Source: Phycisphaerae bacterium
GTDB taxonomy: Bacteria > Planctomycetota > Phycisphaerae > UBA1845 > PWPN01
Direction: 5' to 3'
Assembly: GCA_012729395.1 (NCBI GenBank)
Contig: JAAYDF010000161.1
Coordinates: 3,319-67,318 of the forward strand
DNA length: 64,000 nucleotides
The position numbers were made by a program, and so were the translations under genes. Numbering within the stretch: position 1 is the stretch's first letter; every line of letters starts with the position of its first letter. The notes under the pieces are model-generated. The model had not been told where the DNA came from, did no database searches, and saw only the letters and a program-made list of their open reading frames with translations. Of the stretch, positions 4,796-57,883 are shown one piece after another.

Positions 4796-4858
4796 TGGAC
4801 TCTCTCCGCGATGCGGGTGACACCCAAGGGGGAAAGGATACAGGGTAAAGGCTGAAGG

Positions 4859-7416: not shown

Positions 7417-7421
7417 TCTGA

Positions 7422-7502
7422 GAAAAGGGTGTCAGGATGAATTTTCAGCCGAGTGTCCTGGCGAGGGCGATCCCTGAAAAAATCATCCTGACACCATTTT
7501 TG
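7422..7502. repeat. Inverted-repeat element, copy B
   Basis: Arms ggtgtcaggatgaatttt (7428..7445) and aaaaaatcatcctgacacc (7477..7495) with a 31-nt loop. It lies in the divergent promoter region, and its right end abuts the GGAGGA SD (7502..7507) of the beta-helix gene. Confidence 0.85.
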
Positions 7503-9726: not shown

Positions 9727-11967
9727 GTGTTGAGCGACGAACGTGACGAGTTTGAGTTTCCCGGCGGACCTCATGATCCCCCGCCCGACCTGATCGGAGC
9801 TGAGCCCGATGCGTCGTCGGAGGCCGTCACTCCGCCGGTGGATCCCCAGACCACGATCCGGCTGCTGCAGAACCGCGTCACGGAGCTCGAGAAGAGCGTC
9901 TGGCAACACCAGGGAGTCATCAACGGCCTTCAGGAGAGCCTGCAGGCCCGGGAACAGCAGGCGGCCCAGCACATGCAGGCATTGCGGGCTCGCGAGGATC
10001 AGCTCCACCAGAGTATCGCCAAGGGCCGAGCCCTGGCGGATCAGCTTCATCAGCTTCGCGAGGAGCGCGACGAGGCCGGCCGGGTGCTGACCCTCGAGCG
10101 ACAGCGGTTGGATCAGCAGCGGCGTGAACTGCGGGCCCTTCGGCGGCAACTGGCAGAGCAAACACCGGCAGAAACATCGGAGCAGGCCTGTGATCCCGAA
10201 GAGCCGGTTGTCGCCATTGACGCACTCGTGACCAACCCGCCGGCTGAGCCCCCGACGACGGGTGCTCGCTCGCTGGCTCCACGAACAGCAGGGTTGATCG
10301 CAATCGGAGTTGCCCTGCTGGCCACCGCGGCCTTGCTCGGCGCGACCTGGCTCACCCATACGCCGCGATACCGTGTGACGGGGATCATTTCGGTCGATCC
10401 GCCCGACGCGGAGGTACTCGCTCGGTGCGAGCAGACAGCGTGGACGCCGGGTATCTCGGCCACAAACAAGACTTGGCAGACTCGGCCACACCGCGAGCAG
10501 GGTATCCTCGCTTTATCCCTGGAGGCTTCCGACCCGAAGACAGGTGCCGCGGAAGTGGACCGGGTTGGCCAGGCGATTCTAGCGGCCGAAGGCGTGCCCA
10601 GCACCGCGCCGGCGACCGCACCGGCCGAGTTGCGTGACCGTCTCTTGGCTCGTATTGAGGACCTCAGCCGGGAACTTGCCACAACGCCTCAGCCATCGAC
10701 AGCACCATCCACCACGACCACCGTTGCGTTGCTGGACAGTCTGGGCAAAATCCAAAAGGAACGTGCCCGCATCGCTGGGGAGGTGCAGGAATTGTCGGCG
10801 AGGATCGCGACCCGCCCCGCGACCGAGACCGGGTTGGTGCTGGATCCAAGCCAGATCCGCCAAGCCGAGGGTGAGGTCAAGAAGCTCCAAGCCGACCTAG
10901 CCGCCCTCCAGCATCGTCAACAGCGTCTGGTCGAGCTACTGGCCGAGTTGCTGGAGCCAGGGCTTCAGCGGCTTGATATCCTGCACAAGGCCCTGGGGCA
11001 GGGCGTCAACCTGGTATCGGAACTCCTGCAGCAACGGCACGATGAGGAGGTCCAGGGTCAACTGGAGAATGTGCGTCAGGCTCTGACCCGCTGGTCGGAT
11101 GCCACTCGGACATTCATGGACACATGGACAAGCCGTCGCATGGAGGTGCGGTCGTCTCTCGCTCAGGCAGACGGGATTGTGGTACAGGCGAGCATCGAGG
11201 AGGCATCTCATCAGTACCTCGATCAGACGGCTGGCATTCAGGCCGACTTCGAGCAGGCTTTGGCGGCGATCCCACAGGGAGGCGAGGAACCCACCAAGCG
11301 GATCGTTCTCCACCGCCAGTTGAGTCAGCGTTTCCAGCCGCTGCTCGATGCCGTCCGTGGCGCCCAAAGCGCCGCCCAATCGGTGATTCTGGGTGAGAAT
11401 TCTCAACTGTCGGCCGTGGTTCAGACGGTGAGCAGCCTGCAGACGCGAATTCAAGAGCAGCGCGCCGACGTAGAGCATGAACTGCGTCAGCAACTCCTGG
11501 CAGACCTGCGCAAGCGACACGAAGAAGAGGTCGCCAGGGCCCTGGCCGAGCGCGACCGCCTGCTCGCGCAAGACCGTGAACTAGAAACCACACTCAGCCG
11601 TGCGTTGGCTGAAGCATTGGCCGCCATGGCGGAATACCAGAAGCACCAAGAGACACTGACCGCGTATGTGGATGTCGTCCAGCGAAGAGCGACCCTGCTT
11701 GATCAACTGCGAGCAGCGACGGAGTCATCGGCCCAGCCGGCCGAGGGTCCCGTCATGCGGTATATTCCGGCCCAGTCGGTCGAGCTCGTGGGCCCGCTGC
11801 GCCCACGGCTGATGCGTACGCTCCTGCTGAGTGCCGGCCCGATCTCGGCCTGCATCCTGGCGGGAGTCATCCTGTGGTTTGTCCTGTCCTGGTATCGGTC
11901 TGGGCAAGTCATGGAAGTCTTCGCCCGCCAACTGGAGGAGGCAGCGAGGGAGAAAGGCCGCGAGTAA
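9727..11967 (+). CDS. Coiled-coil membrane protein with polysaccharide co-polymerase (Wzz/GumC)-like topology
   Basis: 746 aa. Two predicted TM helices (..LIAIGVALLATAALLGATWL.. and C-terminal ..LLLSAGPISACILAGVILWFVLSWY) flank a long Q/E/L/R-rich coiled-coil region. A Pro-rich segment IPAQSVELVGPLRPRL precedes TM2, as in PCP proteins. The start (GTG) is uncertain. Confidence 0.65.
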   Translation: MLSDERDEFEFPGGPHDPPPDLIGAEPDASSEAVTPPVDPQTTIRLLQNRVTELEKSVWQHQGVINGLQESLQAREQQAAQHMQALRAREDQLHQSIAKGRALADQLHQLREERDEAGRVLTLERQRLDQQRRELRALRRQLAEQTPAETSEQACDPEEPVVAIDALVTNPPAEPPTTGARSLAPRTAGLIAIGVALLATAALLGATWLTHTPRYRVTGIISVDPPDAEVLARCEQTAWTPGISATNKTWQTRPHREQGILALSLEASDPKTGAAEVDRVGQAILAAEGVPSTAPATAPAELRDRLLARIEDLSRELATTPQPSTAPSTTTTVALLDSLGKIQKERARIAGEVQELSARIATRPATETGLVLDPSQIRQAEGEVKKLQADLAALQHRQQRLVELLAELLEPGLQRLDILHKALGQGVNLVSELLQQRHDEEVQGQLENVRQALTRWSDATRTFMDTWTSRRMEVRSSLAQADGIVVQASIEEASHQYLDQTAGIQADFEQALAAIPQGGEEPTKRIVLHRQLSQRFQPLLDAVRGAQSAAQSVILGENSQLSAVVQTVSSLQTRIQEQRADVEHELRQQLLADLRKRHEEEVARALAERDRLLAQDRELETTLSRALAEALAAMAEYQKHQETLTAYVDVVQRRATLLDQLRAATESSAQPAEGPVMRYIPAQSVELVGPLRPRLMRTLLLSAGPISACILAGVILWFVLSWYRSGQVMEVFARQLEEAAREKGRE

Positions 11968-13890: not shown

Positions 13891-13942
13891 CGGTCCAATC
13901 CACGAACAAGTTCGCGCGGTCCAGCCCACGAACAAGTTCGCG
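13891..13942. repeat. Tandem 2 x 26-bp repeat, each unit carrying the palindromic core CGAACaaGTTCG
   Basis: cggtccaatccacgaacaagttcgcg (13891..13916) is followed directly by cggtccagcccacgaacaagttcgcg (13917..13942), with 24/26 identical. Intergenic, about 180-220 bp upstream of the lipoprotein gene start at 13714. Confidence 0.7.
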
Positions 13943-14031
13943 CATTCCTCAGAGCGGACAGACTTCGCTCGCGGCTTGCCGCTCCGCGGGGCAGCGACGC
14001 CGAAAAGCGGATGCGAAGGGTAGCTCAAGCG

Positions 14032-25932: not shown

Positions 25933-27231
25933 CTACGGCTGACCTGAGCCATCCTTGGCGAGCTCGAGCATGATGATCGTGTCCACGGGGTGGCGGTCTG
26001 CGGCGGGGATGGAAAGGACGAGACTTTGCTCGTTTTGCCGCAGATCGGCGGTCCCACCGGTCAGGACGCGATGGCGGAGAATGGAGCGTCCAGGGGAAGG
26101 TAGCAGGATGGAATCCTCGACCCAGTCCAACATGTGCAAGTAGACGCGGTCGCCGGCCTGAGTGGAAACGCCCCACGGGCCAGGTTCGAGGGGGCCTCGG
26201 CTTGTGCCATAGACGCTCTCGCCATACCGGGCAAGCCAGTTGCCAATCTCCTCCAGCACGACCACTTGGCGAGGCTCGATCTCGCCGGTAGGCATTGGAC
26301 CGACGTTGAGCAGCAGGTTACCGCCGCGGCCGGCACAGGCGGCCAACAGGCGGATGCACTCGGCAGAGGTCTTGATACGGTCGTCCGGCTTGAAGGACCA
26401 CTGCTCGCCGAGCGTGTCGCAGGTCTCCCATGGCTTTGGATTCTCGTATTCGCCAACAGCTTGTTCATAAACCTGAAAGTCCGTATCTGGGCTGAGGCGA
26501 TCGTTTATCAGGATGGCGGGCTGCAGCCCCCGTATCCATTCGTAGAGCAGATGTTGTTCATAGTCCTGCGGCCACTCCTCCTGGACATCAAACCAGAGGA
26601 TGCGAACCGGGCCGTAGGCGGTCAACAGCTCGGCCAACTGATCGCGCATGTATCGGTTGTAGCGGCGATACTGGGCGGTGCGAAAGTCGGGATGATGCCA
26701 GTCCGGAGCCGAGTAGTAGATCCCCAGTGGAAGCTCAGCCGTCCGGCAAGCTTGGGCCAATTCGGCCAGCGGATCGCGGGCCCAGGGCGACCGGGTTATC
26801 TTGTACTCGGTGAGTTGACTGTCGTGCATGCAGAAGCCGTCATGATGCTTAGCCACAAAGACCAGGTACCGAGCACCGGCGGACCGGGCTAGGCGCACCC
26901 ATTCTTCGGCGTCGAACGCGGTGGGATTGAATCGCAGATAAAGCTGATCGTACTCCTCGGGTAAGACGGAAGCTGCCTGATCCCTGCGAGTGCGTGGATC
27001 CTGTCGCGAGTGGCTGATTTCGGTACCTAGCAAGCTGATGGGGCCCCAGTGGATGAACAGACCAAAGCGGGCGTCCTGAAACCAAGCAACCGCGTTGGAT
27101 GGAGCGGCGGGGAACACGGCCACCGAGGGCTTACGCCGCGGCCACGCCGACCAGGCGATCATGCCCGCCTGAACCGCCACTAGGAGGCTCAGGACGGTTA
27201 GCAGGATTCTCGTGCGAGGCGCCACACGCAT
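25933..27231 (-). CDS. Alpha-L-fucosidase (GH29)
   Basis: Track ORF 25933..27348. The likely start is M40 (ATG 27231, MRVAPRTRILLTVLSLLVAV..). GH29 motifs ..ARFGLFIHWGP.. and ..YLVFVAKHHDGFCMHDS... Confidence 0.85.
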   Translation of the reverse strand: MRVAPRTRILLTVLSLLVAVQAGMIAWSAWPRRKPSVAVFPAAPSNAVAWFQDARFGLFIHWGPISLLGTEISHSRQDPRTRRDQAASVLPEEYDQLYLRFNPTAFDAEEWVRLARSAGARYLVFVAKHHDGFCMHDSQLTEYKITRSPWARDPLAELAQACRTAELPLGIYYSAPDWHHPDFRTAQYRRYNRYMRDQLAELLTAYGPVRILWFDVQEEWPQDYEQHLLYEWIRGLQPAILINDRLSPDTDFQVYEQAVGEYENPKPWETCDTLGEQWSFKPDDRIKTSAECIRLLAACAGRGGNLLLNVGPMPTGEIEPRQVVVLEEIGNWLARYGESVYGTSRGPLEPGPWGVSTQAGDRVYLHMLDWVEDSILLPSPGRSILRHRVLTGGTADLRQNEQSLVLSIPAADRHPVDTIIMLELAKDGSGQP

Positions 27232-27444
27232 CAGTCGATCCACTTCCAACGCCCAACGCCGCCAGGCCACCGAGTCCACTCCGGCGCCGGTAGCCGGTGT
27301 CCGCAGTGTAGGCCCCGACGCCTTGGCGTCAACGCAAGCGCGTCGCAACCGGGTAACCGTTCACGGGAGCCAGACCGGAATTGGATAGGGTGTAACTCGC
27401 TGGCCGCCTGGCTCCCGGGGCACAACAGCGAATGCTCAAGGCCT

Positions 27445-27556
27445 AATGACCAATCAATGACCAAGCCCGAAGCCAGAACGCCAACCGCGAGCGGGGACGT
27501 TAGTCATGGGTCATTCGGACTTCATGGGTCATTGGGGCTTCGCCATGGGTCATTTC
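27445..27556. repeat. Empty pair of inverted GAATGACC-type oligo-repeat arrays (homologous to the flanks of the 4HB gene at 37595..38008)
   Basis: The left array ctaatgaccaatcaatgaccaagcccgaagccagaacgccaaccg is about 85 percent identical to 37522..37567. The right array contains tcatgggtcattcggacttcatgggtcattggggcttcgccatgggtcatttc and shares atgggtcattcggacttc with 38032..38049. Only about 13 nt separate the two arrays here. Confidence 0.7.
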
Positions 27557-27775
27557 GCCTGCGGATCGCGAGTTACGCCCAAACCATATCGCTCAGCCAA
27601 CGCGCAAGCCTCCGAACAGCCACAATCCGCACCTTGAGCGGACCGGATTGAGGCGGTATGCTGCGGCCATGTCGCTTGCGGGCGGCCCACGCATAAGGAG
27701 GCGTCCGCATTCAACGGCTTGGATAAGTCGGATTTGCCATTGTTTCGACACGCCGCGCGTGAAGGAGTCGCTCAA

Positions 27776-30667
27776 GTGAGGTACACGGGGTTCTATATTC
27801 TGCTTGGCGTCATGCTACTACTGTGGGGCTGCAATCAGCGTATGCAGGAGCGAGCGGAGGACACGATGGAGGCGGGTGTGCTGGAGCCGTTCCACTTGCG
27901 GTGTGAGTACCTTGTCGAGCCGCTTGGGATAGACAACACCAGCCCCCGACTGAGCTGGGTGGTCAGGTCGGCACTGAGAGGTCAGCGGCAGTCCGCGTAT
28001 CACATTCTCGTGTCGTCAAGCCCGGACAGACTCGCGCAGGATGTGGGTGATCTCTGGGATACGGCCCAGGTACGAAGTGGCCGCACGAATCAGATCGTCT
28101 ACGAGGGACGGCCGCTGGAATCGCGGACCGTCTGCTATTGGAAGGTGCGTGTCTGGGATGCCCAAGGCAGGCCATCGCAGTGGAGCGATGTGTCTCACTG
28201 GACGATGGGACTGCTCGAAGAGGCGGACTGGAAGGCGCGTTGGATCAGCTACCGGGATGATGACTCCATGACCGCGTCGCAACAGAACATGGTGTTGCAG
28301 CCGGCTCGCTACTACCGCAAGGCTTTCCACGCCCCGCAAGCCATTCGTCGTGCAACCGTGTACGCCACGTCGTTGGGCGTTTATGAGCTGTCCCTCAACG
28401 GCCAGGAGGTATCCGACAGGCTGTTTACGCCCGGGTGGAGCGACTACAAGAAGCGGGTCTACTACAACACCTTTGACGTAACGGATCACGTTCGACAGGG
28501 CGACAACGCGATCGGGGCGATTGTCGCGGACGGCTGGTACAGCGGCTACGTGGGTTACGGCAAGTTGGTGGGCTACGGGCCGGACAGATGCGGCCGCTAC
28601 TTCTACGGGAAGACGCCCGCACTCCTGGTGCAGCTTGAGATCGAGTACCAGGACGGCACAACGGAGAGGGTCAATACGGACACCGATTGGAAAGTCACCA
28701 CCGGCCCGCTGTTGGAAGCCGACATGCTGATGGGGGAAACATACGATGCTCGGCTTGAGATGCCCGGATGGAGTAAGCCCGATTTCGCGGACTCCCAGTG
28801 GGACGACGTTGTGCCGGCCGAGGCGAATCCCGGCATCAAAGCCACCTTCCACGATCGGGCGGGGCAGCGAGAGGTCAACCTCGGGTTCGAGCGCCCGGCC
28901 CTCATGCAGGCCTATTCCTCGGTTCCCATCCGCAAGACGGAAACGCTGAAAGCGGTGGGCATCACCGAACCCGAGCCGGGAACCTACATCTTCGACATGG
29001 GGCAGAACTTCTCGGGTGTGGCCCGGCTGCACACCAACGGGCCGGCCGGCACGCAGATCAGATTGCGGTTCGGCGAGATGCTGCATCAAGATGGGCGGTT
29101 GATGACCGAGAACCTTCGCAAGGCTCGCGCGACGGACACCTACATCCTCCGCGGCGACCCGCAGGGCGAGAGCTACCAGCCAAGGTTCACTTATCATGGC
29201 TTCCAATATGTCGAAGTGACCGGCCTGACGCACAAGCCCGACCTGGACACGATCACCGGCATCGTGGTTCATTCCGATACCCCGTTGAGGAGTTCGTTGC
29301 GTTGCTCGGATCCGATGATCAACCAGCTCTTCTCGAACATCGTCTGGACGCAGCGGGCGAATTTCTTCGAGATTCCGACCGACTGCCCGCAGCGTGATGA
29401 ACGTCTCGGCTGGACCGGGGACGCGCAGATCTACGTCCAAGCGGCTGCCTACAACGCGGATGTGGCGGCGTTCTTCACGAAGTGGCTCGACGATCTCGAG
29501 GAGGCGCAGTGGCCGAGCGGCGCTTTTCCCGACTATGCGCCGTACCCGATGACACACGGCAAGACCGAACACGGGTACGCCACCGGCTGGGCCGATGCCG
29601 GGATCATCTGCCCACATGCCATCTACAAGATGTATGGCGACACGCGGGTGATCGCGCGGCATTACGATGCGATGAGCCGGTTCCTGGATTTCCGGCAGAA
29701 GCGGAGTCCGGACTTCCTTGGGGTGGACACCTGCAACGCCTGGGGAGACTGGCTGTCGATCGGTTCGCAGACGCCGATCGAGTTCATCGACACGGTGTAC
29801 TACGCGATATCCGCAAAGAGGATGAGTGAGATGGCCCGGGCCATCGGCAAGGAAGAGGATGCAGCCAAGTACGACCAAGTCTACAAGAGCATTCAACAGG
29901 CCTTTGCCGGGCGATATCTGAATGCAGACGGCACGTTGACGGTGAACAACCAGACCGCGTGTGTACTTGCGCTGTCGGCGGGTTTGGTCCCGGAGGCGTT
30001 CCTTCCGGTGGTGCAAAAGCGTTTGCTTCAACTGCTGGAAGAGAATCAGTACCGCATGACGACGGGCTTCTTGGGCACCAAAGCGCTGTTATTCGTGTTG
30101 TCTGACGCCGGATATACGGACACGGCGGCCCGCCTCTTGCAGAGCCGCGAGTTTCCATCGTGGGGCTACAATGTCGTCAACGGGGCGACCACGGTCTGGG
30201 AGCGATGGAACAGCTACACCAAGGAAGACGGGTTCGGCGACGCGAGCATGAACTCGTTCAGCCATTATGCTTTCGGCGCCGTCTGCCAGTGGATGTTCGA
30301 GAAGCTCGCGGGCATCGACATGCTCCGGCCCGGTTTCGAGCAGATCATGATCAAGCCGCACATACCGTCGCCCGACAGCAATCCGGGCCATGAGCCGATC
30401 GACTGGGTCGATGCCCGATACGATTCGATCCAAGGCCCGATCGAGGTGTCTTGGAAACGCGTGGAAGGAGGATTGGATCTCACGGTGATGATTCCGGCCA
30501 ACACTGAGGCCGTGGTCTACATCCCCGCGCGATCTGTCTCGCAGGTGACTGAAGGGGGAACTCCCATAGCCAAACACCCTGACCTCACTTGCGATGGGAT
30601 TCACGATTCGGCCGTGAAGGTCCAAGCCGGCTCGGGCACGTACCATTTCAGCGTGCGAACGGAGTAG
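27776..30667 (+). CDS. Alpha-L-rhamnosidase (GH78), probable lipoprotein
   Basis: Track ORF 27719..30667 (TTG start). GTG 27776 has GAAGGAG 8 nt upstream and gives VRYTGFYILLGVMLLLWGC... GH78 hallmarks ..LRCEYLVEPLGIDNTSPRLSW.., ..RQSAYHILVSSS.. and ..PTDCPQRDERLGWTGDAQ... Confidence 0.85.
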   Translation: MRYTGFYILLGVMLLLWGCNQRMQERAEDTMEAGVLEPFHLRCEYLVEPLGIDNTSPRLSWVVRSALRGQRQSAYHILVSSSPDRLAQDVGDLWDTAQVRSGRTNQIVYEGRPLESRTVCYWKVRVWDAQGRPSQWSDVSHWTMGLLEEADWKARWISYRDDDSMTASQQNMVLQPARYYRKAFHAPQAIRRATVYATSLGVYELSLNGQEVSDRLFTPGWSDYKKRVYYNTFDVTDHVRQGDNAIGAIVADGWYSGYVGYGKLVGYGPDRCGRYFYGKTPALLVQLEIEYQDGTTERVNTDTDWKVTTGPLLEADMLMGETYDARLEMPGWSKPDFADSQWDDVVPAEANPGIKATFHDRAGQREVNLGFERPALMQAYSSVPIRKTETLKAVGITEPEPGTYIFDMGQNFSGVARLHTNGPAGTQIRLRFGEMLHQDGRLMTENLRKARATDTYILRGDPQGESYQPRFTYHGFQYVEVTGLTHKPDLDTITGIVVHSDTPLRSSLRCSDPMINQLFSNIVWTQRANFFEIPTDCPQRDERLGWTGDAQIYVQAAAYNADVAAFFTKWLDDLEEAQWPSGAFPDYAPYPMTHGKTEHGYATGWADAGIICPHAIYKMYGDTRVIARHYDAMSRFLDFRQKRSPDFLGVDTCNAWGDWLSIGSQTPIEFIDTVYYAISAKRMSEMARAIGKEEDAAKYDQVYKSIQQAFAGRYLNADGTLTVNNQTACVLALSAGLVPEAFLPVVQKRLLQLLEENQYRMTTGFLGTKALLFVLSDAGYTDTAARLLQSREFPSWGYNVVNGATTVWERWNSYTKEDGFGDASMNSFSHYAFGAVCQWMFEKLAGIDMLRPGFEQIMIKPHIPSPDSNPGHEPIDWVDARYDSIQGPIEVSWKRVEGGLDLTVMIPANTEAVVYIPARSVSQVTEGGTPIAKHPDLTCDGIHDSAVKVQAGSGTYHFSVRTE

Positions 30668-30694
30668 ACGAGCAGCGCGGGACATGCTCAGCGT

Positions 30695-31918
30695 ATGGCG
30701 TCTGGCTGGAGATTCCTGATGCACTCGCGCAAAATCGCAGCGTCGATGAGGCGTCCGCGTGTGTCTCGGGTCTGGTTGGGGCTCGTGGCTACGGGTGCGA
30801 TGGTGCTGGCCTCCTGTACTGCCAACCACGAGCTGGGTCGCGCCGGATCACAAAGCGGCCAGGAACGCAAGCGATTGGGGCTGATCCGCCCGAGCGCCGA
30901 CGGCACGCACTTTGTCCATGTCGACTCCGGTGCGCGGTTCACGGTCTGGGGCGTGAACTACGACCACGACCCCGACGGTCGCCTCCTGGAAGATTACTGG
31001 CACGACGAGTGGGCCACCGTGGTGGAGGATTTCGAGGAGATGGCCGCCCTCGGGGCCAACGCGGTGCGCATTCACCTGCAGCTCGGCAAGTTCATGAAAT
31101 CGCCCGAGCAACCCAACACTGCGGAACTGGAGCAGCTTGGGCGTCTGCTGGATCTGGCCAGGCGGACCGGGCTGTACCTCAATCTGACCGGCCTGGCGTG
31201 CTACCACAAGCAGGATGTGCCGCCCTGGTACGACGCGATGAGCGAGGCGGACCGCTGGGCGGTGCAGGCTCGGTTCTGGGCGGCCGTGGCCAAGACCTGC
31301 GCCGGCCACCCGGCCATGTTCTGTTACGACCTGATGAACGAGCCGATCCTGCCTGGCGACGACAAAAAGGAAACCGACTGGCTGGCCGGCGAGTTCGGGG
31401 GCAAGCACTTCGTGCAGCGGATCACGCTGGACTTGGCCGGCCGCACGCGGCACGAGGTCGCCCGGGCCTGGATCGACACCCTGGTTTCCGCCATCCGCAA
31501 GCACGACCCGCACACCATGATCACGGTCGGGGTCATCCCCTGGGCCCACGTCTGGCCGCAGGCCAAGCCGCTCTTCTACGCACCGGAGGTCGGCGTCAAC
31601 CTCGACTTCGCCTGCGTGCACTTCTATCCCAAGTCCGGCCAGGTCGAGAAGGCCCTGGCCGCACTGGCGGTCTACCGTGTCGGCAAGCCGCTGGTCGTCG
31701 AGGAGATGTTTGCGCTCGAGTGCGGCATCGAGGAGCTCGACGCCTTCATCGAGGGTTCCCGTGATTGGGTCGCGGGCTACTTCGGCTTCTACTGGGGCAG
31801 AACCATCGAGGAATACGCGGCACTGACAGGTGAACAACGGACCATCGGCGCGGCCATCACCCAACGTTGGCTGGAGTACTTCCGCGACAAGGCGGCTCAG
31901 TGGTTGCGGGAGAAGTAG
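30695..31918 (+). CDS. Glycoside hydrolase family 5-like (cellulase/mannanase fold), probable lipoprotein
   Basis: 407 aa. ..GAMVLASC lipobox, ..FTVWGVNY.., ..GANAVRIHL.. and ..FCYDLMNEP.. (the NEP acid/base motif of clan GH-A). The start is ambiguous (30695 or 30746). Confidence 0.7.
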   Translation: MASGWRFLMHSRKIAASMRRPRVSRVWLGLVATGAMVLASCTANHELGRAGSQSGQERKRLGLIRPSADGTHFVHVDSGARFTVWGVNYDHDPDGRLLEDYWHDEWATVVEDFEEMAALGANAVRIHLQLGKFMKSPEQPNTAELEQLGRLLDLARRTGLYLNLTGLACYHKQDVPPWYDAMSEADRWAVQARFWAAVAKTCAGHPAMFCYDLMNEPILPGDDKKETDWLAGEFGGKHFVQRITLDLAGRTRHEVARAWIDTLVSAIRKHDPHTMITVGVIPWAHVWPQAKPLFYAPEVGVNLDFACVHFYPKSGQVEKALAALAVYRVGKPLVVEEMFALECGIEELDAFIEGSRDWVAGYFGFYWGRTIEEYAALTGEQRTIGAAITQRWLEYFRDKAAQWLREK

Positions 31919-32898
31919 TCCCAGACGAGGTAGACCTTGGCATCGTTGATCCCAGGGTACTGCCAGGGGCGAATGGGGCCGAGTTGGGCGGTGCCGATCC
32001 TGCCGCCGGGGTCGACAACACGGCGGGCATGGAAGTCGCTATAGAGGACGTTGTAGCTTTGCAGGTGGTAGCCTTGATACCCGCCGAAGAAGCCGTCCGA
32101 GACGAACGCGTGAACGGCGTGACGGCCACGGGAGGCCTGCGGGAACGGGCCAAGGAAGGACGGGTCGGGCTCAGCCGGGTCATGCAGATACCGCCAATAG
32201 GGATACTCAGCAGCAGGCACCGGGGCGAAGTTACGGATCACCTCTTCGGGGTACATTCGGCTACCCGCATCGCGCGGGTTCTTGCCCTCGACGGCGGGGA
32301 TTGCGTAACCATAAGCCCCAAACGGCGAGATGGGAAAGTTGTGTGAGTTCTGGTATTGCGGGTCGGTGTGCTTGGGGTGGCGGTAGCGCTGGAGGAAAGT
32401 CGCCTTACCGTTGGGGCCGTTGATGTCGGCGGCTTTGTTGTTGGGGCAGTAGAAGACTTCAGGCGTCGAGCCGACGTAGCGGGGATAGAGAAGCCCGCCG
32501 TTGACCGCGGCCCAGTCGTGGCTCTCCGGCGGTTGAAAGCCCAGGTAGTACTTCCCCTCCATGAGCGAGTAGCGGAACGATCCGACCCAGGGCAGGTAGG
32601 CTTTGTGGTCGCCCCCGTAGGCCGCGAAGCCGACGCCCTGCTGCTTGAGATTCGCCAAACAGAGAGCAGCCCAGGCCTGCTCCCTCGCCCGGCGCAGAGA
32701 CGGAAGCAAGACCGCGATCAACAGCGCGATGATGCCAACAACAACAAGGATCTCGATGAGGGTGAAACCCGCGTACATGCTTCCGCGCGGTCTTGCGGCA
32801 AGAGCCGATCGACCGCCTCGGGTCGGCGGTGTGCCCTGGTCACTCATCTTCTGATCGTCCTTCCGACTTGCGTGCGCGGGCAGCGGCATCCTCATCAC
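31897..32898 (-). CDS. DUF1559 protein with a prepilin-type N-terminal cleavage/methylation domain
   Basis: ..GFTLIEILVVVGIIALLIAVLLPSLRRAREQA.. followed by a DUF1559-like body. Several candidate starts (GTG 32898, ATG 32895, 32889, 32847). The 3' end overlaps the convergent GH5 gene by 22 bp. Confidence 0.85.
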   Translation of the reverse strand: MMRMPLPAHASRKDDQKMSDQGTPPTRGGRSALAARPRGSMYAGFTLIEILVVVGIIALLIAVLLPSLRRAREQAWAALCLANLKQQGVGFAAYGGDHKAYLPWVGSFRYSLMEGKYYLGFQPPESHDWAAVNGGLLYPRYVGSTPEVFYCPNNKAADINGPNGKATFLQRYRHPKHTDPQYQNSHNFPISPFGAYGYAIPAVEGKNPRDAGSRMYPEEVIRNFAPVPAAEYPYWRYLHDPAEPDPSFLGPFPQASRGRHAVHAFVSDGFFGGYQGYHLQSYNVLYSDFHARRVVDPGGRIGTAQLGPIRPWQYPGINDAKVYLVWDYFSRNH

Positions 32899-34103
32899 GC
32901 CCAGATGGAGTCCGCCGTCGCGTACATGACCAGTGAGCGGGACGGACCATGCGAGTGTTTGCCGTTGTGGGCGCTGTTGACGGCGCTGTAGAACAAGTGG
33001 TACCGCCCGTCGCGATGCACCAGATGGCTGGGCGGATAAATGCCGTAGGAGTCCGGCTGCGTGCTATCGCCGCGGGGCAGCCAGGCGGAGCGCACCGGCC
33101 GATGCCACTTCAGGCCGTCGGTCGAGAAACACCATTCGAGGTCCATGGTCTGGGCCTGCACGCGGTAATGGCCGAGCATGCCCACCCGGCCGCGAGGCGT
33201 GTATGTGACCGCAAGGTGGTAGAACTGCTGATCGACGAAGTCGTTGGCGTCGCGCTGGATGACCCGATTGCGCGTCCCGAAGCGCAAGCCGTCCTCGGAG
33301 GTATAGCGGTCGATGACCCGCAGCAGCCCCGGGGCGTTGTCGTGGGGCATGTAGGCCGGGTCCTCCTTGGGCACGGAGATCAGGGCCACGGAGTACATCT
33401 CGAACGTGCCGTCGGAAAGCTGGTAAATGTTGGTGGCGTCGTTGGAGATCAGGCGGGCCGGTGCCTGCGGTTCGTCGGCGGGCCTATCCGGGCTAACCTG
33501 GCGGACCAGCATAACGCCGTCGGGCGAGGGCACGCCGTGTGCCGCCCGGTCGTTCGGGTGGTAAAGCACCGGGCGGTGCGGATCGACTACGCGGTACCGC
33601 CGGCCGTCATCGCTGTCGGCGGCCAAGTAGCGAAGGATGCCGCGTCCGTGCGCCCAGAAGTAGATCCGATGCTTGCCGTTGAGGAGGGGGACGTGGACAA
33701 CCTGCGTCGGCCTCCACCCGTCGGGCAGGTGCCCGACGGCGAACGGTCCGTCGCCGGGCTCACCGGGCGTGAGCTGAGCGGGGAACTTCTTCATCGGTTC
33801 GCCCGACCGGCCTTCCGCGTAGGCGATGGTGTAACTGCTGCGGCCGCCCACCGCCGAGTACCACAACCGCCAACGACCGTCATCCAGTACCTCGACCGGC
33901 GAGGTGAAGTTCTGGATGAAGCCGTGCTCCCAGGGCTCTGTAACTTCGAGCACGGTGCCGTGTTTCCGCCATGCGCTCGGGGGGCAAGGCATGGGCAGTT
34001 CCGACTCATCGCCGAAAGCCCGACGACCGAGCCCTAGTTGGCCGGCCGCGGCGCCCAAGGTCGCACCGGCGGCACGAGACAGGAAGGTTCGCCGATCGAG
34101 CAT
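32895..34103 (-). CDS. Tat-secreted beta-propeller-like glycoside hydrolase candidate (GH43/32/130-clan-like; family uncertain)
   Basis: Track ORF 32895..34268. The start is at M56 (ATG 34103), giving the Tat-like MLDRRTFLSRAAGATLGAAAG. Repeated ..DG.W.L.YSAV.. and ..DGRYHLFYSAV.. blade-like motifs. The function call has low confidence. Confidence 0.6.
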   Translation of the reverse strand: MLDRRTFLSRAAGATLGAAAGQLGLGRRAFGDESELPMPCPPSAWRKHGTVLEVTEPWEHGFIQNFTSPVEVLDDGRWRLWYSAVGGRSSYTIAYAEGRSGEPMKKFPAQLTPGEPGDGPFAVGHLPDGWRPTQVVHVPLLNGKHRIYFWAHGRGILRYLAADSDDGRRYRVVDPHRPVLYHPNDRAAHGVPSPDGVMLVRQVSPDRPADEPQAPARLISNDATNIYQLSDGTFEMYSVALISVPKEDPAYMPHDNAPGLLRVIDRYTSEDGLRFGTRNRVIQRDANDFVDQQFYHLAVTYTPRGRVGMLGHYRVQAQTMDLEWCFSTDGLKWHRPVRSAWLPRGDSTQPDSYGIYPPSHLVHRDGRYHLFYSAVNSAHNGKHSHGPSRSLVMYATADSIWA

Positions 34104-34423
34104 GGGTATGATCCTCCAGCGGGCGGCACATGCCGAGCCCGCGAAGCGGTTCGCCGGGCAAGAGCTCAGGTCGCACTCGCAAGCCGACCCACCGGTCGCC
34201 GGCCTGCCGATCGGATCACATACAGGCCGAAGCACGATCCGCGGTCGGCTCCACCCGCCAGTGCTCATCCACCCACAAGCCCAGGATGCGTATCGGCAAG
34301 AACCATGTGGCGATCACCGGCTCCTGTACCCAGCCATCCATACAGTTGATCACCGTGGCGAATCGCCCGCGCATCAAGTGGTCCTCAGCTACACATACTC
34401 CGGCAACGTGGAGCTTCCCGCCG

Positions 34424-35557
34424 TCAGACGTCCACCCAGACTCCGCTACGAGCGCTTTCGAGCACCGCGTCGCAAACCTTCTGCGTCTCCAGGGCATCGC
34501 GGAAGGTCGGGCTGGCGGGCCGCCCCGTGGCGACGCCCTCCAGGAAGTCGGCGACCTGGTGGACGAAGGAGTGTTCGTAACCGATCTGCAGGCCCGGCAC
34601 CCACCACTTACCCATGTACGGCTGGTCCCCGTCCGTCACGTGGATGCTCCGCCAACCGCGGACGATCGAGTCGTCGCGGTGGTCGAAGTAGCCAAGCCGG
34701 TGCAGATCGTGCAAGTCCCACGCAATCGAGGCCTTTTCGCCGTTGATCTCGAAAGTATAGAGCGCCTTGTGACCGCGGGCGTAGCGCGTCGACTCGAACG
34801 TCGCCAGCGAGCCATTCGAGAACCGGGCGAGGAAAGCGCAGGCGTCGTCGATGTTCACCTTCTCGACCTTGCCGGTGATATTGTGCTTGCGCTCTTTGAT
34901 GAAGGTCTCGGTCATGGCGGTCACGCTGCGGATACTACCGTTGAGCCACAGGGCGGTATCGATGCAGTGGGCGAGCAGGTCGCCGGTGACGCCGGAGCCG
35001 GCCACCTTGGCATCGAGTCGCCAGAGGGCGTCGCCGCCCTGGGGCAGGTCGGAGGAGATCGTCCAATCCTGCAGGAATACGGCCCGGTAGTGGAAGATCT
35101 TGCCGAGCCGGCCCTCGTCGATGAGCTTCTTGGCCAGAGTGACGGCCGGCACGCGGCGATAGTTGAACGAGACCAAGTTGGGTACGCCGGCCTTCTCGAC
35201 CGCGTCCACCATCTCCTGGCCCTCGGCGGTGTTCATGGCCAGCGGCTTCTCGCAGATGATCATCTTGCCAGCCGCCGCCGCCGCCATGGCGATCTCGCGG
35301 TGGGTGTTGTTTGGCGTGCAGATGTCGACGATGTCGATATCCTTGCGGGCCAGCAGCTTCTTCCAGTCGGTCTCGACCGACTCGTATCCCCACGTATCCG
35401 CGAATGCCTTGGCCTTGTCGGCGCTCACGTCGCAGATCGCCTTGAGTGCGGGCTTCAGCTCCGGCTTGAAGAAACTGTACACCTTGCGGTACGCGTTCGA
35501 ATGCGTCCGCCCCATGAAACCGCAACCGATCAGACCGACGTTAAGTGGCTTGGACAT
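34424..35557 (-). CDS. Gfo/Idh/MocA family oxidoreductase
   Basis: Track ORF 34424..35641. ATG 35557 is preceded by ggaga. The N-terminus [23 protein letters not shown] is a Rossmann fold. Confidence 0.85.
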
Positions 35558-35689
35558 GGCTGTTCTCCGCTTCACGTGGGCCGCACCCACGGCTCCTGCC
35601 TCGCACTCGCAATAATGACCCGTACAGACCTCACCCGGCATCCTAGCCCGAGCCCGCGGAGGTGGTCAAGCGGGCCGTCGGCGGCACGC

Positions 35690-36177
35690 TTATTCGCCTG
35701 CGAATCGGCGGCGGTGCTCGGCCTCGAGCTGCCCCCAGAACGCGGCCGCGCGACGATCCTGCTGATCCCGCTGGCGAGTGTGTTCGCTGAGGTATCGCTG
35801 ACCGCGGACCGGCGAGTTCTGCAGACTATCCGCCCACGCGAGAACTTGGCGGGATGCGGATTCGGCGAGGGATTTCAGATCTGAGATTTGAGACTGCAGA
35901 TGCACGAAGTAGGGCAGCCGTTCAGTCAACAGCAGCATGGAGCGCACCTCGCCGGCCGAGCCGCGGGCGATGTAGAGACAAGTGAGCAGTTCTTGCGTTG
36001 TGCCGCGTTCAAAACCCTCCGCGATGTTGTTCCCGACCGAGATTGCCGCCCGCTGAATCTGGCTGCGCAAATCACCTTTGCCCCGAAGCTGCGGTCGTCG
36101 GTCAGCCTGAATACCCCCTCAGCCAACTGCATGGCCGTTTGCCAGACCGGCAGATCCTCGAATCGCTCGTAAGTCAT
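35690..36177 (-). pseudogene. Four-helix-bundle protein (23S rRNA IVS protein / Avd-like family), apparently frameshifted
   Basis: The N-terminal part, MTYERFEDLPVWQTAMQLAEGVFRLTDD.. (frame of 36177), and the remainder, ..DLRSQIQRAAISVGNNIAEGFERGTTQELLTCLYIARGSAGEV.. (frame of 36070), are both family-typical but lie in different frames. One extra G around 36074..36079 (aaaggt to aagggt) would restore a single ORF. This is either a true pseudogene or a sequencing indel. Confidence 0.65.
35871..35902. repeat. Short oligo-repeat array (gatttcagat / ctgagatt / ctgcagat), inverted relative to 36203..36335
   Basis: gatttcagatctgagatttgagactgcagatg is the reverse-complement flavour of the aatctcagatc/atctgaaatc/aatctgcaatc units found upstream of the 4HB gene. 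It lies within the 3' part of the 4HB reading frame (..LQSQISDLKS..). Confidence 0.6.
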
Positions 36178-36202
36178 GCGCGACTCCCGAATCCCAAACC
36201 TG

Positions 36203-36335
36203 TAATCTCAGATCCGAAATCTCAGATCTGAAATCTGCAATCCCAACTCTGCCGCTTCGAATCTGCAATCTCAGATCTCCAACGCCCCATCTGAAATCTG
36301 CAATTTCGAATCTGCGATCTCCAATCTGCCACCTC
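36203..36335. repeat. Degenerate oligo-repeat array (aatctcagatc, atctgaaatc, aatctgcaatc units)
   Basis: taatctcagatccgaaatctcagatctgaaatctgcaatcc...gaatctgcaatctcagatctcc...atctgaaatctgcaatttcgaatctgcgatctccaatctgcc. There is no regular spacing, so it is not CRISPR-like. Spurious ORFs translate it as ..EISDLRLQ... Confidence 0.75.
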
Positions 36336-36427
36336 AGACCCCCACTCGCAGACACACACCTCACAGCGCAATACGGCCATTACTCTGCAAGATGCTGCAA
36401 ATCCATCATCCCCACAACCAAGACCCA

Positions 36428-37483
36428 TCACTCCCGCCACCCGTGGGCGTCGCGGACGGCGAGCATGGCGGCCAGGATGCTGTTCCAGGTCTGCGGCCGG
36501 TGCATGACCTCATTGGAGAACATGCAGCCGTCCCAGCAGATGTGGCGAATCTTGCGGGTGGGTTGGCCGGCGTCATCACGGAGCCAGTAGCCGGCCTCGC
36601 GCACAATGTCCAGCTTGCCGTTGGGATCGCCGGGAAGGCAGTGACGGCCGGTCTTGTCGTGCGAGCCGCTGCCCTTGACCGTGGCATCGTTCTGGGCGAC
36701 GTGGAAGTCGATGGTCCACGGGCGCAGCGCGGCGGTAAGCTGCCGGTAGGCGGCCTCGAAGGTCTGCGGAGAATCCCATCCAAAACCCTCGGGCAGAATG
36801 CGGTCCTCGGGAGCGTTATAGCCCATCGTATAGAGCAGCGTGTGGGCCATATCCGCCTGGAAGCCGAGCGTCTTGGGCCGGTCGACCATCTCGAGGAGCT
36901 GCACCATCCGCCGCCATGAGTGCATGCCGCCCCAGCAGATCTCGCCCTCGGCGGCCAGCCGCTCGCCACACTGCTCAGCCATGTCGCAGGCCTCGCGGAA
37001 AGTGGCCGCGATCTTCTTCTGGTTGCCCTCGGGATCCTTGTACCAGTCCTCGACGCCGCAGGCCGAGTCGATCCGCACGATGCCGTATGGCCGCACACCC
37101 AGTTTCCGCAGGGCCGCGGCGATGCGGCAGCCTTTGCGGACCTGCTCGACGAACTGCTTGCGTTCGCTTTCGCCGCCCATGGCCGACCCGCCGCCCGTCG
37201 GTGGCCAGACCGGAGCCACGACCGAGCCCACCACGAGACCCTTGGCCCGGACCTTGTCCGCCAGCCGTTTGAGCCCGTCGTCGTCGATGTCGATACTGAC
37301 GTGCGGGTCGAAGAGGAACAGGTCGATCCCCTCGAACTTCACCCCATCCACCTCGGCAGCGACGGTCAGATCCAGCATGGTGTCCAGATCGATCGGCGGC
37401 TCGGAGTCCGGCCCCTTGCCGACCAAGCCCGGCCAGGCGGCATTGTGGAGTTTCGGCCAGTTGTTTTGATGTGTCGCAGTCAC
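36428..37483 (-). CDS. Sugar phosphate isomerase/epimerase (xylose isomerase-like TIM barrel)
   Basis: Track ORF 36428..37564. Its first 27 codons translate the repeat array. GTG 37483 has GGGAGGA 7 nt upstream ([24 protein letters not shown]..). TIM-barrel family pattern ..[10 protein letters not shown].., ..RIDSA.., ..[15 protein letters not shown]... Confidence 0.8.
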
Positions 37484-37500
37484 GGACGATTCCTCCCTAT

Positions 37501-37567
37501 GGGAATGACCAATGTCGAAACCCGAATGACCAAGCAATGACCAAGCTCGAATGCCGAATGCCAACCG
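37501..37567. repeat. GAATGACC-type oligo-repeat array (left flank of the 4HB cassette)
   Basis: gggaatgaccaatgtcgaaacccgaatgaccaagcaatgaccaagctcgaatgccgaatgccaaccg. It contains aatgaccaa three times and gaatgcc twice, and is homologous to 27445..27487. Confidence 0.8.
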
Positions 37568-37594
37568 AAAAGCGGCATGCTCCGATTTCCTCGA

Positions 37595-38008
37595 TCATGG
37601 ATCCTGCGCTGTATTGGAGCGCGCCTTGCGGCTCCGGTGAATCGCCCCGAAGATCAAGTTGCGCTCCTGCGCTTCGCGCCACAGGGTGCGCGCCTCCTCC
37701 TTGGATGTCGGAACGGCAACGGCGATCATCCGGAGCCAGTGCTTGCTCTCTTTCGCCTCGCGCTTGCACACACTGATCCGATACCGAAACTCCTTCCCGG
37801 AACCGGCCTCGTCCGCCTCACAGTAGTTTGAGCCCACGCTGGTACCCGCCCGAACAAGCTGGCGAGTCAGTGGGTCCGTCACCGCATTTGCGGGCAACTT
37901 CCTCGCGAAGGAGATGACCGCTTCGCCAAAACGTGCAGTGCGCTCATCCAAGTCAAATCGCGGCCTGGAAGCCTTGCCGTCCTCATCCGTGTCGCGAGGG
38001 TCGCTCAT
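37595..38008 (-). CDS. Four-helix-bundle protein (23S rRNA IVS protein / Avd-like family, PF05635-type)
   Basis: 137 aa. ..FDLDERTARFGEAVISFARKLP..DPLTRQLVRAGTSVGSNYCEADEAGSGKEFRYRISVCKREAKESKHWLRMI.. matches the family pattern. It lies in an operon spacer, flanked by inverted oligo-repeat arrays. Confidence 0.85.
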   Translation of the reverse strand: MSDPRDTDEDGKASRPRFDLDERTARFGEAVISFARKLPANAVTDPLTRQLVRAGTSVGSNYCEADEAGSGKEFRYRISVCKREAKESKHWLRMIAVAVPTSKEEARTLWREAQERNLIFGAIHRSRKARSNTAQDP

Positions 38009-38013
38009 TTGCG

Positions 38014-38065
38014 TTTCGGCATTCGTCGTCTATGGGTCATTCGGACTTCGCCATTCGTCATTCAC
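38014..38065. repeat. GGTCATTC-type oligo-repeat array (right flank of the 4HB cassette, inverted relative to 37501..37567)
   Basis: tttcggcattcgtcgtctatgggtcattcggacttcgccattcgtcattcac. The units ggcattc, ggtcattc, gccattc and gtcattc are reverse complements of the left-flank units. It overlaps the stop codon of the 38062..39315 gene. Confidence 0.8.
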
Positions 38066-39315
38066 TTCTTCCCGTCGCACACCTTCGGCACGTTCGGGTG
38101 CGTGTCGGGGCCGAAGTAGCGCAGGCTGACCAGCGGCTCGCTGCCGGTATTCTCGATCTCGATGCCCGCGGCGGCGGCCTCGGCGGTGATGAACACCTCG
38201 TCCTCGGTCAGATCGCCGAAGCGAATCATCGCAGGCGTCTGCAACGGCAGCTTGCCGATTCGGCCCTTGCCCTGGACGGTAATCCAGCCGCTGGCGCCCG
38301 GATCCTTGAGCACACACTTGGCCCCCGGCTCGACGGTCAGCTCCTTGGCGCTGAACAACTGCTGACCATCAATGTGCCCGTAGACGATCCACTTGTCCGT
38401 GTAGCCCTTGCCGCTGGCCTTCTCGTCCACGATGGGCACAAGCTGGTTGTGCTCGACGAAATGCGTATCGACGTTCTTGTCCCAATCGAGTTGCTCGATG
38501 ATGAAGTCCAGGTCGCGGTGCTTGTCCTTGGGTACGTCCTTGACCAGCAGATCCCAGGGGACGTACCTGCCCTCGACGATGTTCTGGTACATGCCAAACA
38601 CGTCGCTGCCCCACTGCGGCTCGTAGGTGCACAAAGAGCCCGGCGCGTGCAGCACGCCCGCCGGGATTAACCACCCCGTCCCCCGCTTGAGTCGGTACGC
38701 CCGTGACAGGTCGAGAATGCCGTTGTCGCCCTTGTTCCAGTTATCGAGGCACCGCCGCAACTGAGCCTTCGTCGTACCCGGTTCGAGGCCCATGAACGTG
38801 TAGGCGAAGTTGTTGTCCACGTTGTTCATCTGCGGGGAAAAGTAGTACGCCTCGGGCTTGCCTTCCTGCCCGGTCAGTTTGGCGTGCTCCGGCCGCTGGT
38901 GCATGTGATGCGGGATGGGCCCCATGTTGTCGAAGAACTTCGAGTAGACCGGCCAGCGTTTGTACTTGTCGAACATCGCCTTGCCGATCAGCTTGGCCCC
39001 TGCCTCGGCGACGGCGTCCTTGAGCAGGAAGCACTTGTCCTCGAAGACCACGTAGCTAAGGCCCTCTTCCGGCTCACGGTTGTCGTTCATCGCCTCGGTC
39101 GTACTCGCGAACCAGCGCTCGTCGATACCACCACGGTCGGCGCCGAGAGCGTAGTAGTCCTGGGGAGCAAGCTTGAGCCGGCGCCCGGGATGCAGAAAAC
39201 TGCGGGGCACCCAGTTCGGCGCCAATCGCAGCAAGCCGCCGCCGGAGTTCAACGCGCTGTTCACCAAGGCCGAAAGATTCTTGGCTACTGCCGTGCATGT
39301 TTTGGGTTTGAGCAT
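38062..39315 (-). CDS. Cupin-fold sugar isomerase-like protein (class I mannose-6-phosphate isomerase-like), putative
   Basis: 417 aa. The His-rich metal-site-like ..GPIPHHMHQRPEH.. and ..GWLIPAGVLHAPGS.. resemble PMI-type cupins. The CDS call is solid; the function call is tentative. Confidence 0.7.
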   Translation of the reverse strand: MLKPKTCTAVAKNLSALVNSALNSGGGLLRLAPNWVPRSFLHPGRRLKLAPQDYYALGADRGGIDERWFASTTEAMNDNREPEEGLSYVVFEDKCFLLKDAVAEAGAKLIGKAMFDKYKRWPVYSKFFDNMGPIPHHMHQRPEHAKLTGQEGKPEAYYFSPQMNNVDNNFAYTFMGLEPGTTKAQLRRCLDNWNKGDNGILDLSRAYRLKRGTGWLIPAGVLHAPGSLCTYEPQWGSDVFGMYQNIVEGRYVPWDLLVKDVPKDKHRDLDFIIEQLDWDKNVDTHFVEHNQLVPIVDEKASGKGYTDKWIVYGHIDGQQLFSAKELTVEPGAKCVLKDPGASGWITVQGKGRIGKLPLQTPAMIRFGDLTEDEVFITAEAAAAGIEIENTGSEPLVSLRYFGPDTHPNVPKVCDGKK

Positions 39316-39584
39316 ATCGAAGGCTCCCTTTTACAGTTGACTACTCGCAAACGGCCACATCCGGTAGAGGCGGCCACATGAGGACATTCTAGTTCGACTG
39401 CGACGCTTTGCGGCGGCCGTTGGGAAGCAACAAAGCTCCACGCTCCGGCCGCCACGAGGGACCACCGCTGCCGAAGAGCGTGGGGCGGCGACTGCCGGAG
39501 CACACCCTCCAACGCTGCCGCAGCAGCCCTTCCGCTGCTCTCCAGCGAGATACTCCCAGCCATACTGGCTTGCCGGCTCCTCGC

Positions 39585-42789: not shown

Positions 42790-42885
42790 CCAAAGGTGTC
42801 AGGAACCTTTATCGAGCGATGCGGCCTGCCGCTCGACGAACTGCGTTCTTGCGTCGCCCGAAAAAGGTTCCTGACACCTTTTTGG
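42790..42885. repeat. Inverted-repeat element, copy C (AAAGGTGTCAGGAACCTTT subtype)
   Basis: Perfect 19-bp arms aaaggtgtcaggaaccttt (42792..42810) and aaaggttcctgacaccttt (42863..42881) with a 52-nt loop. It lies between the convergent 3' ends of the ThuA and GH51 genes. Confidence 0.9.
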
Positions 42886-57857: not shown

Positions 57858-57883
57858 GGCAACCTCCACGCTTCTTCCCGGCA

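Follow-up and report, generated by a model that had tools for sequence, protein, structure and literature searches.

A probable ORF-less member of a PF05635 cassette family in a Phycisphaerae genome

In the 23S rRNA genes of Coxiella, the intervening sequence (IVS) carries terminal inverted repeats and a 28-bp stem, is cleaved by RNase III, and has tandem heptamers (GACAGAT) directly upstream of its S23p (PF05635) ORF (PMC4990558). Avd, an accessory protein of diversity-generating retroelements, belongs to a four-helix-bundle (4HB) superfamily that it shares with PF05635 (PMC10053308), and tandem units of 7 nt are also found in the TAACTGA repeats of Beggiatoaceae, which often stand right before start codons (PMC4679880). 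The PF05635 family is still labelled uncharacterised in recent papers, and its function, like the origin and spread of the IVSs, has been a standing question since the early 1990s. A search of the accessible literature for the cassette pattern described below returned no description beyond the rRNA IVS case, and for the repeat strings and the link between heptamers and this family it returned the Coxiella IVS paper only.

Here we analyse a 64-kb stretch of Phycisphaerae DNA (the window) in which two pairs of such arrays occur, one around a 4HB gene at 37.5 kb and one without a gene at 27.4 kb. We consider that 27442-27556, which has no ORF and is partly decayed, probably belongs to a family of small cassettes, each composed of a PF05635/TIGR02436 gene between inverted AATGAC-type arrays. 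The 27.4-kb site alone is a modest relic, and the interest lies chiefly in the broader pattern: most 4HB genes outside rRNA have conserved inverted heptamer arrays around them and a host gene directly before them. This pattern accounts for a class of conspicuous intergenic repeats in the genomes of Planctomycetota and candidate phyla, which interrupt assemblies and give rise to spurious ORFs.

The element at 27.4 kb and the cassette at 37.5 kb

The ORF-less element covers 115 nt (27442-27556), probably extending to about 27425-27597, and sits in the 679-nt divergent spacer between a GH29 gene (PF01120, 25933-27162/27348, minus strand) and a GH78 gene (27842-30667, plus strand). Its parts, annotated without a strand, are a left arm (27442..27487) with the units TAATGAC CAAT CAATGAC CAAGCCC GAAGCC..., a short, G+C-rich apex (27488..27504) centred on a small palindrome, CCGCGAGCGG, and a right arm (27505..27556) with three ATGGGTCATT units. 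The right arm is followed by a non-array flank (27557..27597) that moves together with it. The arrays are made of AATGAC-type units at 7-nt spacing, which differ from one another and include one irregular 11-nt unit; TRF reports only an 18-nt period in 2.1 copies. Strict lag-7 autocorrelation missed the arrays owing to indels, and motif and 8-mer scans detected them. In the window, whose G+C content is about 63%, ATGACCAA occurs in 7 copies with 1.3 expected, and five of the seven lie at the 27.4-kb element and the 37.5-kb cassette. No PF05635 ORF is found between the arms of the solo element, and the overlapping ORFs at 27457-27651 and 27231-27464 have no Pfam match.

The cassette lies on the minus strand and comprises a gene for a 137-aa 4HB protein (37595..38008; PF05635/TIGR02436, nearest solved structure 2rld), an upstream (5′) arm of GAATGAC/GAATGGC/GAAGTCC units (38009..38063), and a downstream (3′) arm formed by a GTCATTC/GGTCATT array (37497..37567) that stops just 5′ of the AP_endonuc_2 ribosome-binding site. 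The 53 nt that follow the stop codon of a gene for a 417-aa protein are occupied by the 5′ arm. The 4HB protein matches solely PF05635/TIGR02436 and PDB 2rld, with no known catalytic domain and no recognisable transposase. In the predicted fold of the sense RNA of this cassette, the arms pair across the ORF in the minimum-energy and centroid structures alike.

The earlier note on this DNA had called the 27.4-kb site an empty version of the 4HB cassette, which is apt as a description of homology, since both arms are collinear with those of the cassette and the ORF segment is absent. The strings that it quoted are present in the sequence, the sole discrepancy being a 2-nt offset (the first string starts at 27443). 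Its near base-for-base match of the left arrays is reproduced by local alignment: the left arm, 27442-27487, and 37522-37567 in the array 3′ of the 4HB gene are identical at about 40 of 46 positions (score 60, against a mean of 16.7 and a maximum of 24 in 300 shuffles), the alignment having two gaps of 1 nt. An independent repeat search returns this relation as a 57-nt direct repeat (27431-27487 / 37511-37567, 79%). For the right arm, homologous to the array 5′ of the 4HB start (38020-38062), the segment 27512-27554 aligns with 38020-38062 at a score of 44 against a shuffle maximum of 29, and the identical 18-nt stretch reported before, ATGGGTCATTCGGACTTC, is exact at both 27505-27522 and 38032-38049. 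The spacing given in the note, about 13 nt at 27.4 kb and about 445 bp with the 4HB gene at 37.5 kb, agrees with gaps of 13-24 nt and about 440-455 nt, respectively; the 13 nt at 27488-27500, inside the apex, are cgagcggggacgt, and the apex as a whole stands where the cassette has approximately 450 nt with the ORF.

The pairwise alignment for which the note had asked returned collinear, arm-specific similarity, and the likeness between the two sites goes beyond their shared heptamers. The two arms of the cassette are unlike each other, with GAATGACCCAT-type units 5′ of the gene and TTGGTCATTG(C/A)TTGGTCATT 3′ of it, and this asymmetry is reproduced in the solo element. Its left arm scores 60 against the cassette left arm and 23 against the reverse complement of the other arm, and its right arm scores 44 against the cassette right arm and 36 against the crossed arm. 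The irregular 11-nt spacing AATGACCAA(K)CAATGACCAAG is common to both sites, and CCGCTTTTCGG, the counterpart of the apex palindrome, is found directly 3′ of the 4HB stop codon in the cassette. The homology on the inner side picks up again at CCGCT..CGGTTGG, just past that stop codon, which indicates that the solo element misses the ORF and about 10-20 nt on each side of it. On the evidence of these alignments, we describe the solo element as a cassette minus its ORF, with the arms in cassette order and orientation and with arm-specific sequence kept. The solo left arm is identical at 27 of 28 positions to the cassette arm of another Phycisphaerae species (L015) and at 25 of 28 to the window's own cassette arm, which suggests that the solo element retains an older state.

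Arrays of this kind might also be made independently by replication slippage, as in cyanobacterial STRRs, and the presence of heptamer arrays of other units without a 4HB gene, both in the window (4833-4866) and in relatives, is in keeping with such an origin. For the 27.4-kb element we regard convergence as extremely improbable. The order of variant units is collinear between the two sites, the irregular 11-nt unit included, and a half element of 118 nt on a metagenome contig (L154) is approximately 91% identical to window 27597-27480 (minus strand) with 40 nt of non-array flank included; a further contig, L152, carries the same half element. Moreover, copy number does not vary among assemblies, and the link between AATGAC arrays and 4HB genes extends across phyla. 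The convergent origin is thus largely refuted, as judged from the collinear and flank homology. The concern raised in the earlier note, that the repeats might occur in many spacers with no tie to 4HB genes, applies to heptamer arrays of other units, which do lack a 4HB gene, but not to the AATGAC arrays, which are tightly tied to the 4HB family. The inner order GAATCAATGAC-GAAGCCC-GAATGACC is common to many ORF-less copies, indicating that the arrays make up a structured element rather than a mere simple repeat.

Several other repeats were seen in passing. The array at window 4833-4866 consists of AAAGGCT in 4.9 copies, about 35 nt upstream of the start of a minus-strand gene and with no 4HB gene nearby. 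Lone heptamer arrays occur in relatives at L021 2128-2202 (TGAGATT), L015 8491-8552 (CAGCCCC), and L018 15810-15880. A second hairpin family, AAAGGTGTCAGGA(T/A)...TCCTGACACCTTT, is intergenic and present in four copies in the 64 kb (1224-1305, 7421-7502, 42792-42885, and 57875-58013), and a 26-nt tandem duplication, CGGTCCAACCCACGAACAAGTTCGCG in two copies that are 92% identical, lies at 13891-13943.

Age and conservation of the two sites

In other Phycisphaerae species, 4HB homologues that are 72-73% identical occupy the same slot, with the shared gene order 417-aa gene, 4HB, AP_endonuc_2, second 4HB, and GFO_IDH_MocA. The synteny of the cassette is seen in L015/L016 and L018-L020, and arrays flank the 4HB gene in every species. 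Between the 4HB gene and its orthologues, synonymous sites are saturated (pS 0.75-0.78; pN 0.20-0.22). Comparison with a variant that is 93% identical gives a dN/dS of about 0.3. These values point to purifying selection on the 4HB protein. The 3′ arm is identical at 61 of 69 positions (88%) between the window and L015, far above the neutral expectation and the synonymous sites. To judge from these comparisons, the 37.5-kb cassette is an old resident of its slot and not a recent arrival.

The second 4HB gene (PF05635; 35690..36175, minus strand), belongs to the same operon as the first, lies between the AP_endonuc_2 and GFO_IDH_MocA genes, and also keeps its syntenic slot in other Phycisphaerae species. 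It is frameshifted near 36085, a lesion present in eight independent assemblies, and illustrates ORF decay within a cassette. Directly 5′ of it, heptamers of another type (CAGATTT / GAGATCT) form an array of approximately 130 nt (36196..36329, minus strand), and no matching array was found downstream of the ORF. A short stretch complementary to the upstream array, GATTTGA in 3.3 copies, is visible within the coding region at 35871-35893.

Metagenome contigs with the window genes (L001-L012, L024, and L025) were compared with the window, and the identities given here hold for the stretches compared. The spacer and both cassettes match the window base for base in the contigs read; the spacer was compared in L011/L012 and the region of the second 4HB gene in eight contigs. 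No filled/empty polymorphism was seen among the contigs compared, and repeat copy number is constant as well. The earlier note had proposed to look for alleles with and without a gene; none was seen among these contigs, which are base-identical in every stretch compared. Where their gene content seemed to differ, the cause was a gene-calling artefact.

The position of the solo element differs from that of the cassettes in that it lies between divergent genes, not behind a co-directional gene. The complementarity of its arms is weak, with an alignment score of 20 versus 43 for the cassette arms, and its RNA fold of -52 and -55 kcal/mol corresponds to z values of -1.1 to -2.5. With its place in a divergent promoter spacer and its poorly pairing arms, the solo element is in all likelihood a largely inert relic of some age, rather than an insertion site that was vacated recently or is still unfilled.

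The same location raises the question of a role for the host, in which the paired arrays would serve as an operator or 5′-UTR structure for the divergent GH29 and GH78 genes, with the 4HB protein possibly binding in trans. Such a role is unlikely at 27.4 kb, even though the element does sit in the divergent spacer. The one GH29 promoter-like site (27332-27305) stands on the gene side of the element, placing the element outside that 5′ UTR, and the solo hairpin is weak. The selective constraint on the cassette arms and the sharing of unit variants between ORF-less copies and the cassette of the same genome are both consistent with regulation, as is the occurrence elsewhere of heptamer arrays just 5′ of start codons (also PMC4679880); against these stand similar hairpins behind unrelated genes and the nearest GH29 orthologue, which has no such array. 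That orthologue (P0122, 71% identity) has a cellulase as its neighbour in place of GH78, so that its array-free spacer provides no orthologous comparison for the solo site.

Cassettes and ORF-less hairpins in other genomes

A survey of 4HB genes, based on an alignment of 26 homologues and one genome per species, yielded 80 loci (L026-L105) at 55-75% protein identity from Planctomycetota, Verrucomicrobiota, many Patescibacteria, Cloacimonadota, Gammaproteobacteria, WOR-3, and others. When the 130 nt upstream of each 4HB gene were tested against the 130 nt downstream, inverted-repeat flanks with z of at least 4 were found in 65 of 79 genes (median z 10.8). The flanks show autocorrelation peaks at lags of 7 and 14 nt, and AATGAC is present in the upstream arm of 54 of 79 (about 2 by chance); in A+T-rich genomes, the unit becomes TAATTAC / CTAATTGAC. 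The arms are close to the ORF: at the median, the upstream arm ends 6 nt from the start codon and the downstream arm begins 24 nt from the stop codon. In 69 of 77 cases the gene next upstream points the same way, and the 4HB start follows the stop codon of the upstream gene at a median distance of 49 nt, which leaves no space for a separate promoter. Mismatches between the arms of the surveyed cassettes comprise 50 versus 58 of the G-U type by strand and 208 transversions. There is thus no G-U bias, and the complementarity of the arms may be maintained at the level of DNA, for instance because they bind a protein or form the ends of the element, rather than through RNA folding. Rfam contains no family for the solo hairpin or the cassette and detects no rRNA in window 26500-39500; it likewise detects none around the 4HB genes in ten loci, from eight Patescibacteria and two Cloacimonadota MAGs.

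MAGs assigned to very distant phyla, among them Patescibacteria, Cloacimonadota, Gammaproteobacteria, Bacillota, and Bifidobacteriaceae, contain window-like 4HB genes with the same AATGAC arrays, which suggests either horizontal spread of the gene with its arrays or mis-binned contigs. Each GAATGAC unit contains an ATG (window 38009-38063; L075 9923-9990). In L075 the longest 4HB reading frame begins within the array, and the N-terminus of that protein may be partly array-encoded. Most cassettes have no Shine-Dalgarno motif between arm and start codon. In L087 a tRNA gene (9872-9943) lies immediately upstream of the cassette (4HB start 9995), indicating that cassettes can follow RNA genes and not only protein-coding ones.

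The view of the earlier note that the arrays can exist on their own is well supported beyond the window. The 56 loci whose cassettes are clear, 0.80 Mb in all, contain 17 inverted array pairs too closely spaced to admit a gene, spread over 11 of the loci; one more pair is present in L018, with others in metagenomes. The L018 pair (4539-4694) is a near-perfect ORF-less hairpin (-73 kcal/mol, z -7.9), and the genes on its two sides are co-directional; it is made of its own genome's unit variants, and the signature AATGTCTAAAGAATGAC is common to this hairpin and the L018 cassette. In L075 four ORF-less pairs occupy successive gaps of co-directional genes and stop immediately 5′ of the ribosome-binding site that follows, and these hairpins align with one another and with those of L070, the apex being partly included. 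Several related copies per genome are the case in L075 (four) and L088 (three), and L070 has multiple copies too.

Metagenomes were scanned with the motif CGAAGYCCSAATGACC, which is too short for the collection, and the window's own sites are not among the matches listed. Among the 120 matches listed, 106 have no array context and 14 do; these 14 comprise nine ORF-less hairpins and five half arrays. No 4HB gene was recognised near the listed matches with array context, a result that is valid for this 4HB subfamily only, as the profile used (alignment A2) is narrow and misses divergent PF05635 members, even the window's second 4HB gene. In one hairpin, L148, the right arm is identical to the 3′ arm of the window cassette at 52 of 57 positions. 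L148, L152, and L154 are related copies known from metagenome contigs, and the samples that yielded L148 and L154 contain the window organism as well.

The direction of change can be read most directly in L026, where a truncated copy precedes a full cassette by about 0.6 kb (about 0.8 kb from start to start). The truncated copy has lost 289 nt of the ORF. Its 5′ part, consisting of the 5′ arm and the first ~55 nt (~18 codons) of the ORF, is identical to the full copy at 104 of 105 positions, and its 3′ part, consisting of the last ~34 nt (~11 codons) and the 3′ arm, is identical at 86 of 92. By this comparison, the L026 copy represents a direct intermediate of ORF loss.

In related Phycisphaerales genomes, one slot between two conserved genes carries a different insert in each (L075 7460-9052, L070 8474-9041, L067 7930-9099, L093 8360-9101, L061 5550-7440, and L090 555-1239). 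The slot is filled by a pectate-lyase-like gene with a hairpin on either side, by GxxExxY (TIGR04256) genes enclosed in inverted arrays of CACAGAT or CGCGGAGAT, by a gene for a zinc-ribbon membrane protein, or by a 198-aa gene, and it is a hot spot for small cassettes. Behind another conserved gene, a hairpin is present in L075 and L070, half-present in L090, and absent from L067 and L093. The downstream genes are different in L067 and L093, so that these two offer no empty site to compare with the hairpins of L075 and L070.

Two further observations concern these inserts. Genes with a CxxC...CPECG zinc ribbon stand beside 4HB or hairpin elements at L018 10492-11022, L067 8484-9053, and L093 ~8497-9054. 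In the window itself, the arms of an inverted repeat at 47841-47955, AAACCACAGATAAACACTGATGAAGGAA / TTTCTTCATCCGTGTTCATCTGTGGTTT, stand 59 nt apart, and the repeat resembles the CACAGAT arrays around the GxxExxY genes of L061. As the 64-kb window holds no GxxExxY gene, this repeat is probably the ORF-less relic of a GxxExxY cassette.

Together, the L026 deletion, the varying slots, and the presence or absence of hairpins indicate gain and loss over longer times, though the window sites are static. The earlier note had seen in the two window sites the signature of an insertion or excision, or of cassette gain or loss. This holds in so far as ORF loss is visible elsewhere, in the 289-nt deletion of L026; at either window site there is no sign of a recent event, the cassette being old and syntenic and the contigs identical.

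The variable slot bears on a further interpretation, according to which the inverted-array hairpin is the primary element or attachment site, 4HB ORFs enter at its apex, and 27.4 kb is an unfilled target. The exact placement of the ORF between the arms would be expected on such a scheme, as would the excess of ORF-less over ORF-bearing copies among the array matches listed and the Phycisphaerales slot in which different small genes (GxxExxY, TIGR04256, or the pectate-lyase-like gene between two hairpins) each lie in inverted arrays. We nevertheless assign it a low probability. The sole intermediate seen, that of L026, is a deletion that retains both ends of the coding sequence; the solo element has the asymmetric, arm-specific sequences of the cassette and not a symmetric hairpin; and the 37.5-kb cassette is ancient and syntenic.

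Proposed mechanism and comparison with known systems

By analogy with 23S rRNA IVSs, the cassettes would be transcribed as part of the host transcript. The stem predicted between the arms would loop the ORF out of that transcript, and RNase III, as in the rRNA case, probably cuts the stem, so that the neighbouring cistrons would stay functional. ORF-less copies could stem from cassettes that lose their ORF or from hairpins that had none when they were copied, and would then persist as intergenic hairpins. Copying of an already ORF-less hairpin to 27.4 kb would give the same pattern as ORF loss at that site.

More tentatively, one can entertain the possibility that PF05635 genes with inverted AATGAC arrays form a single pan-bacterial class of transcript-embedded selfish cassettes, of which the 23S rRNA IVSs occupy merely the best-known site. 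The 4HB protein, which is pentameric in solved relatives, would recognise the arrays, the ORF-less hairpins in intergenic gaps of Planctomycetota and Patescibacteria would be non-autonomous offspring, and the GxxExxY cassettes would constitute a parallel class. Apart from that scheme, the broader pattern itself yields a concrete model open to test, in which the arrays would be the functional partner of the 4HB protein and the ORF-less hairpins relics.

Among known repeat families, the window elements are reminiscent of MITEs and of REP/BIME, ERIC, and Correia elements, which are likewise short, ORF-less inverted repeats in intergenic or intercistronic positions, sometimes with several copies per genome, and related to a longer, gene-bearing element. 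The Correia hairpins of Neisseria are RNase III substrates when they occur in transcripts. In contrast to MITE-like elements, the gene-bearing partner in the window encodes a four-helix bundle and no recognisable transposase, and the arms are heptamer arrays rather than unique terminal repeats. With the STRR and TAACTGA repeats, the window arrays share tandem 7-nt units in intergenic DNA, and the window unit TGACCAA / TTGGTCA resembles STRR2. Unlike STRR-type repeats, the window arrays form an inverted pair with a conserved inner order, are tied to one gene family, and are constant in copy number between assemblies.

As for diversity-generating retroelements, no reverse transcriptase and no template or variable repeat was found beside the window 4HB genes, whose neighbours are the 417-aa protein, which has no family match, AP_endonuc_2, and GFO_IDH_MocA; in contrast to the setting of Avd, these 4HB genes have sugar-metabolism genes as neighbours. 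The GxxExxY (TIGR04256) cassettes are similar in architecture, in that a gene of approximately 125 aa lies in inverted arrays of short units (CACAGAT; CGCGGAGAT) in the same kind of intergenic slot, but the protein fold and the repeat unit are different.

A close match is with the 23S rRNA IVSs of Leptospira and Coxiella burnetii, in which a small PF05635 ORF likewise lies within inverted repeats that form a long stem, the corresponding fold of the window cassette being a predicted one. ORF-less short IVS hairpins also occur in enterobacterial rRNA genes. The window elements differ in that they lie between protein-coding genes and not in rRNA and in that their arms are long AATGAC-type arrays, and the solo element differs further in having no ORF and in lying in a divergent spacer. 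The resemblance to the Coxiella IVS extends to the heptamers themselves, as the window's second 4HB gene has CAGATTT-type units where Coxiella has GACAGAT.
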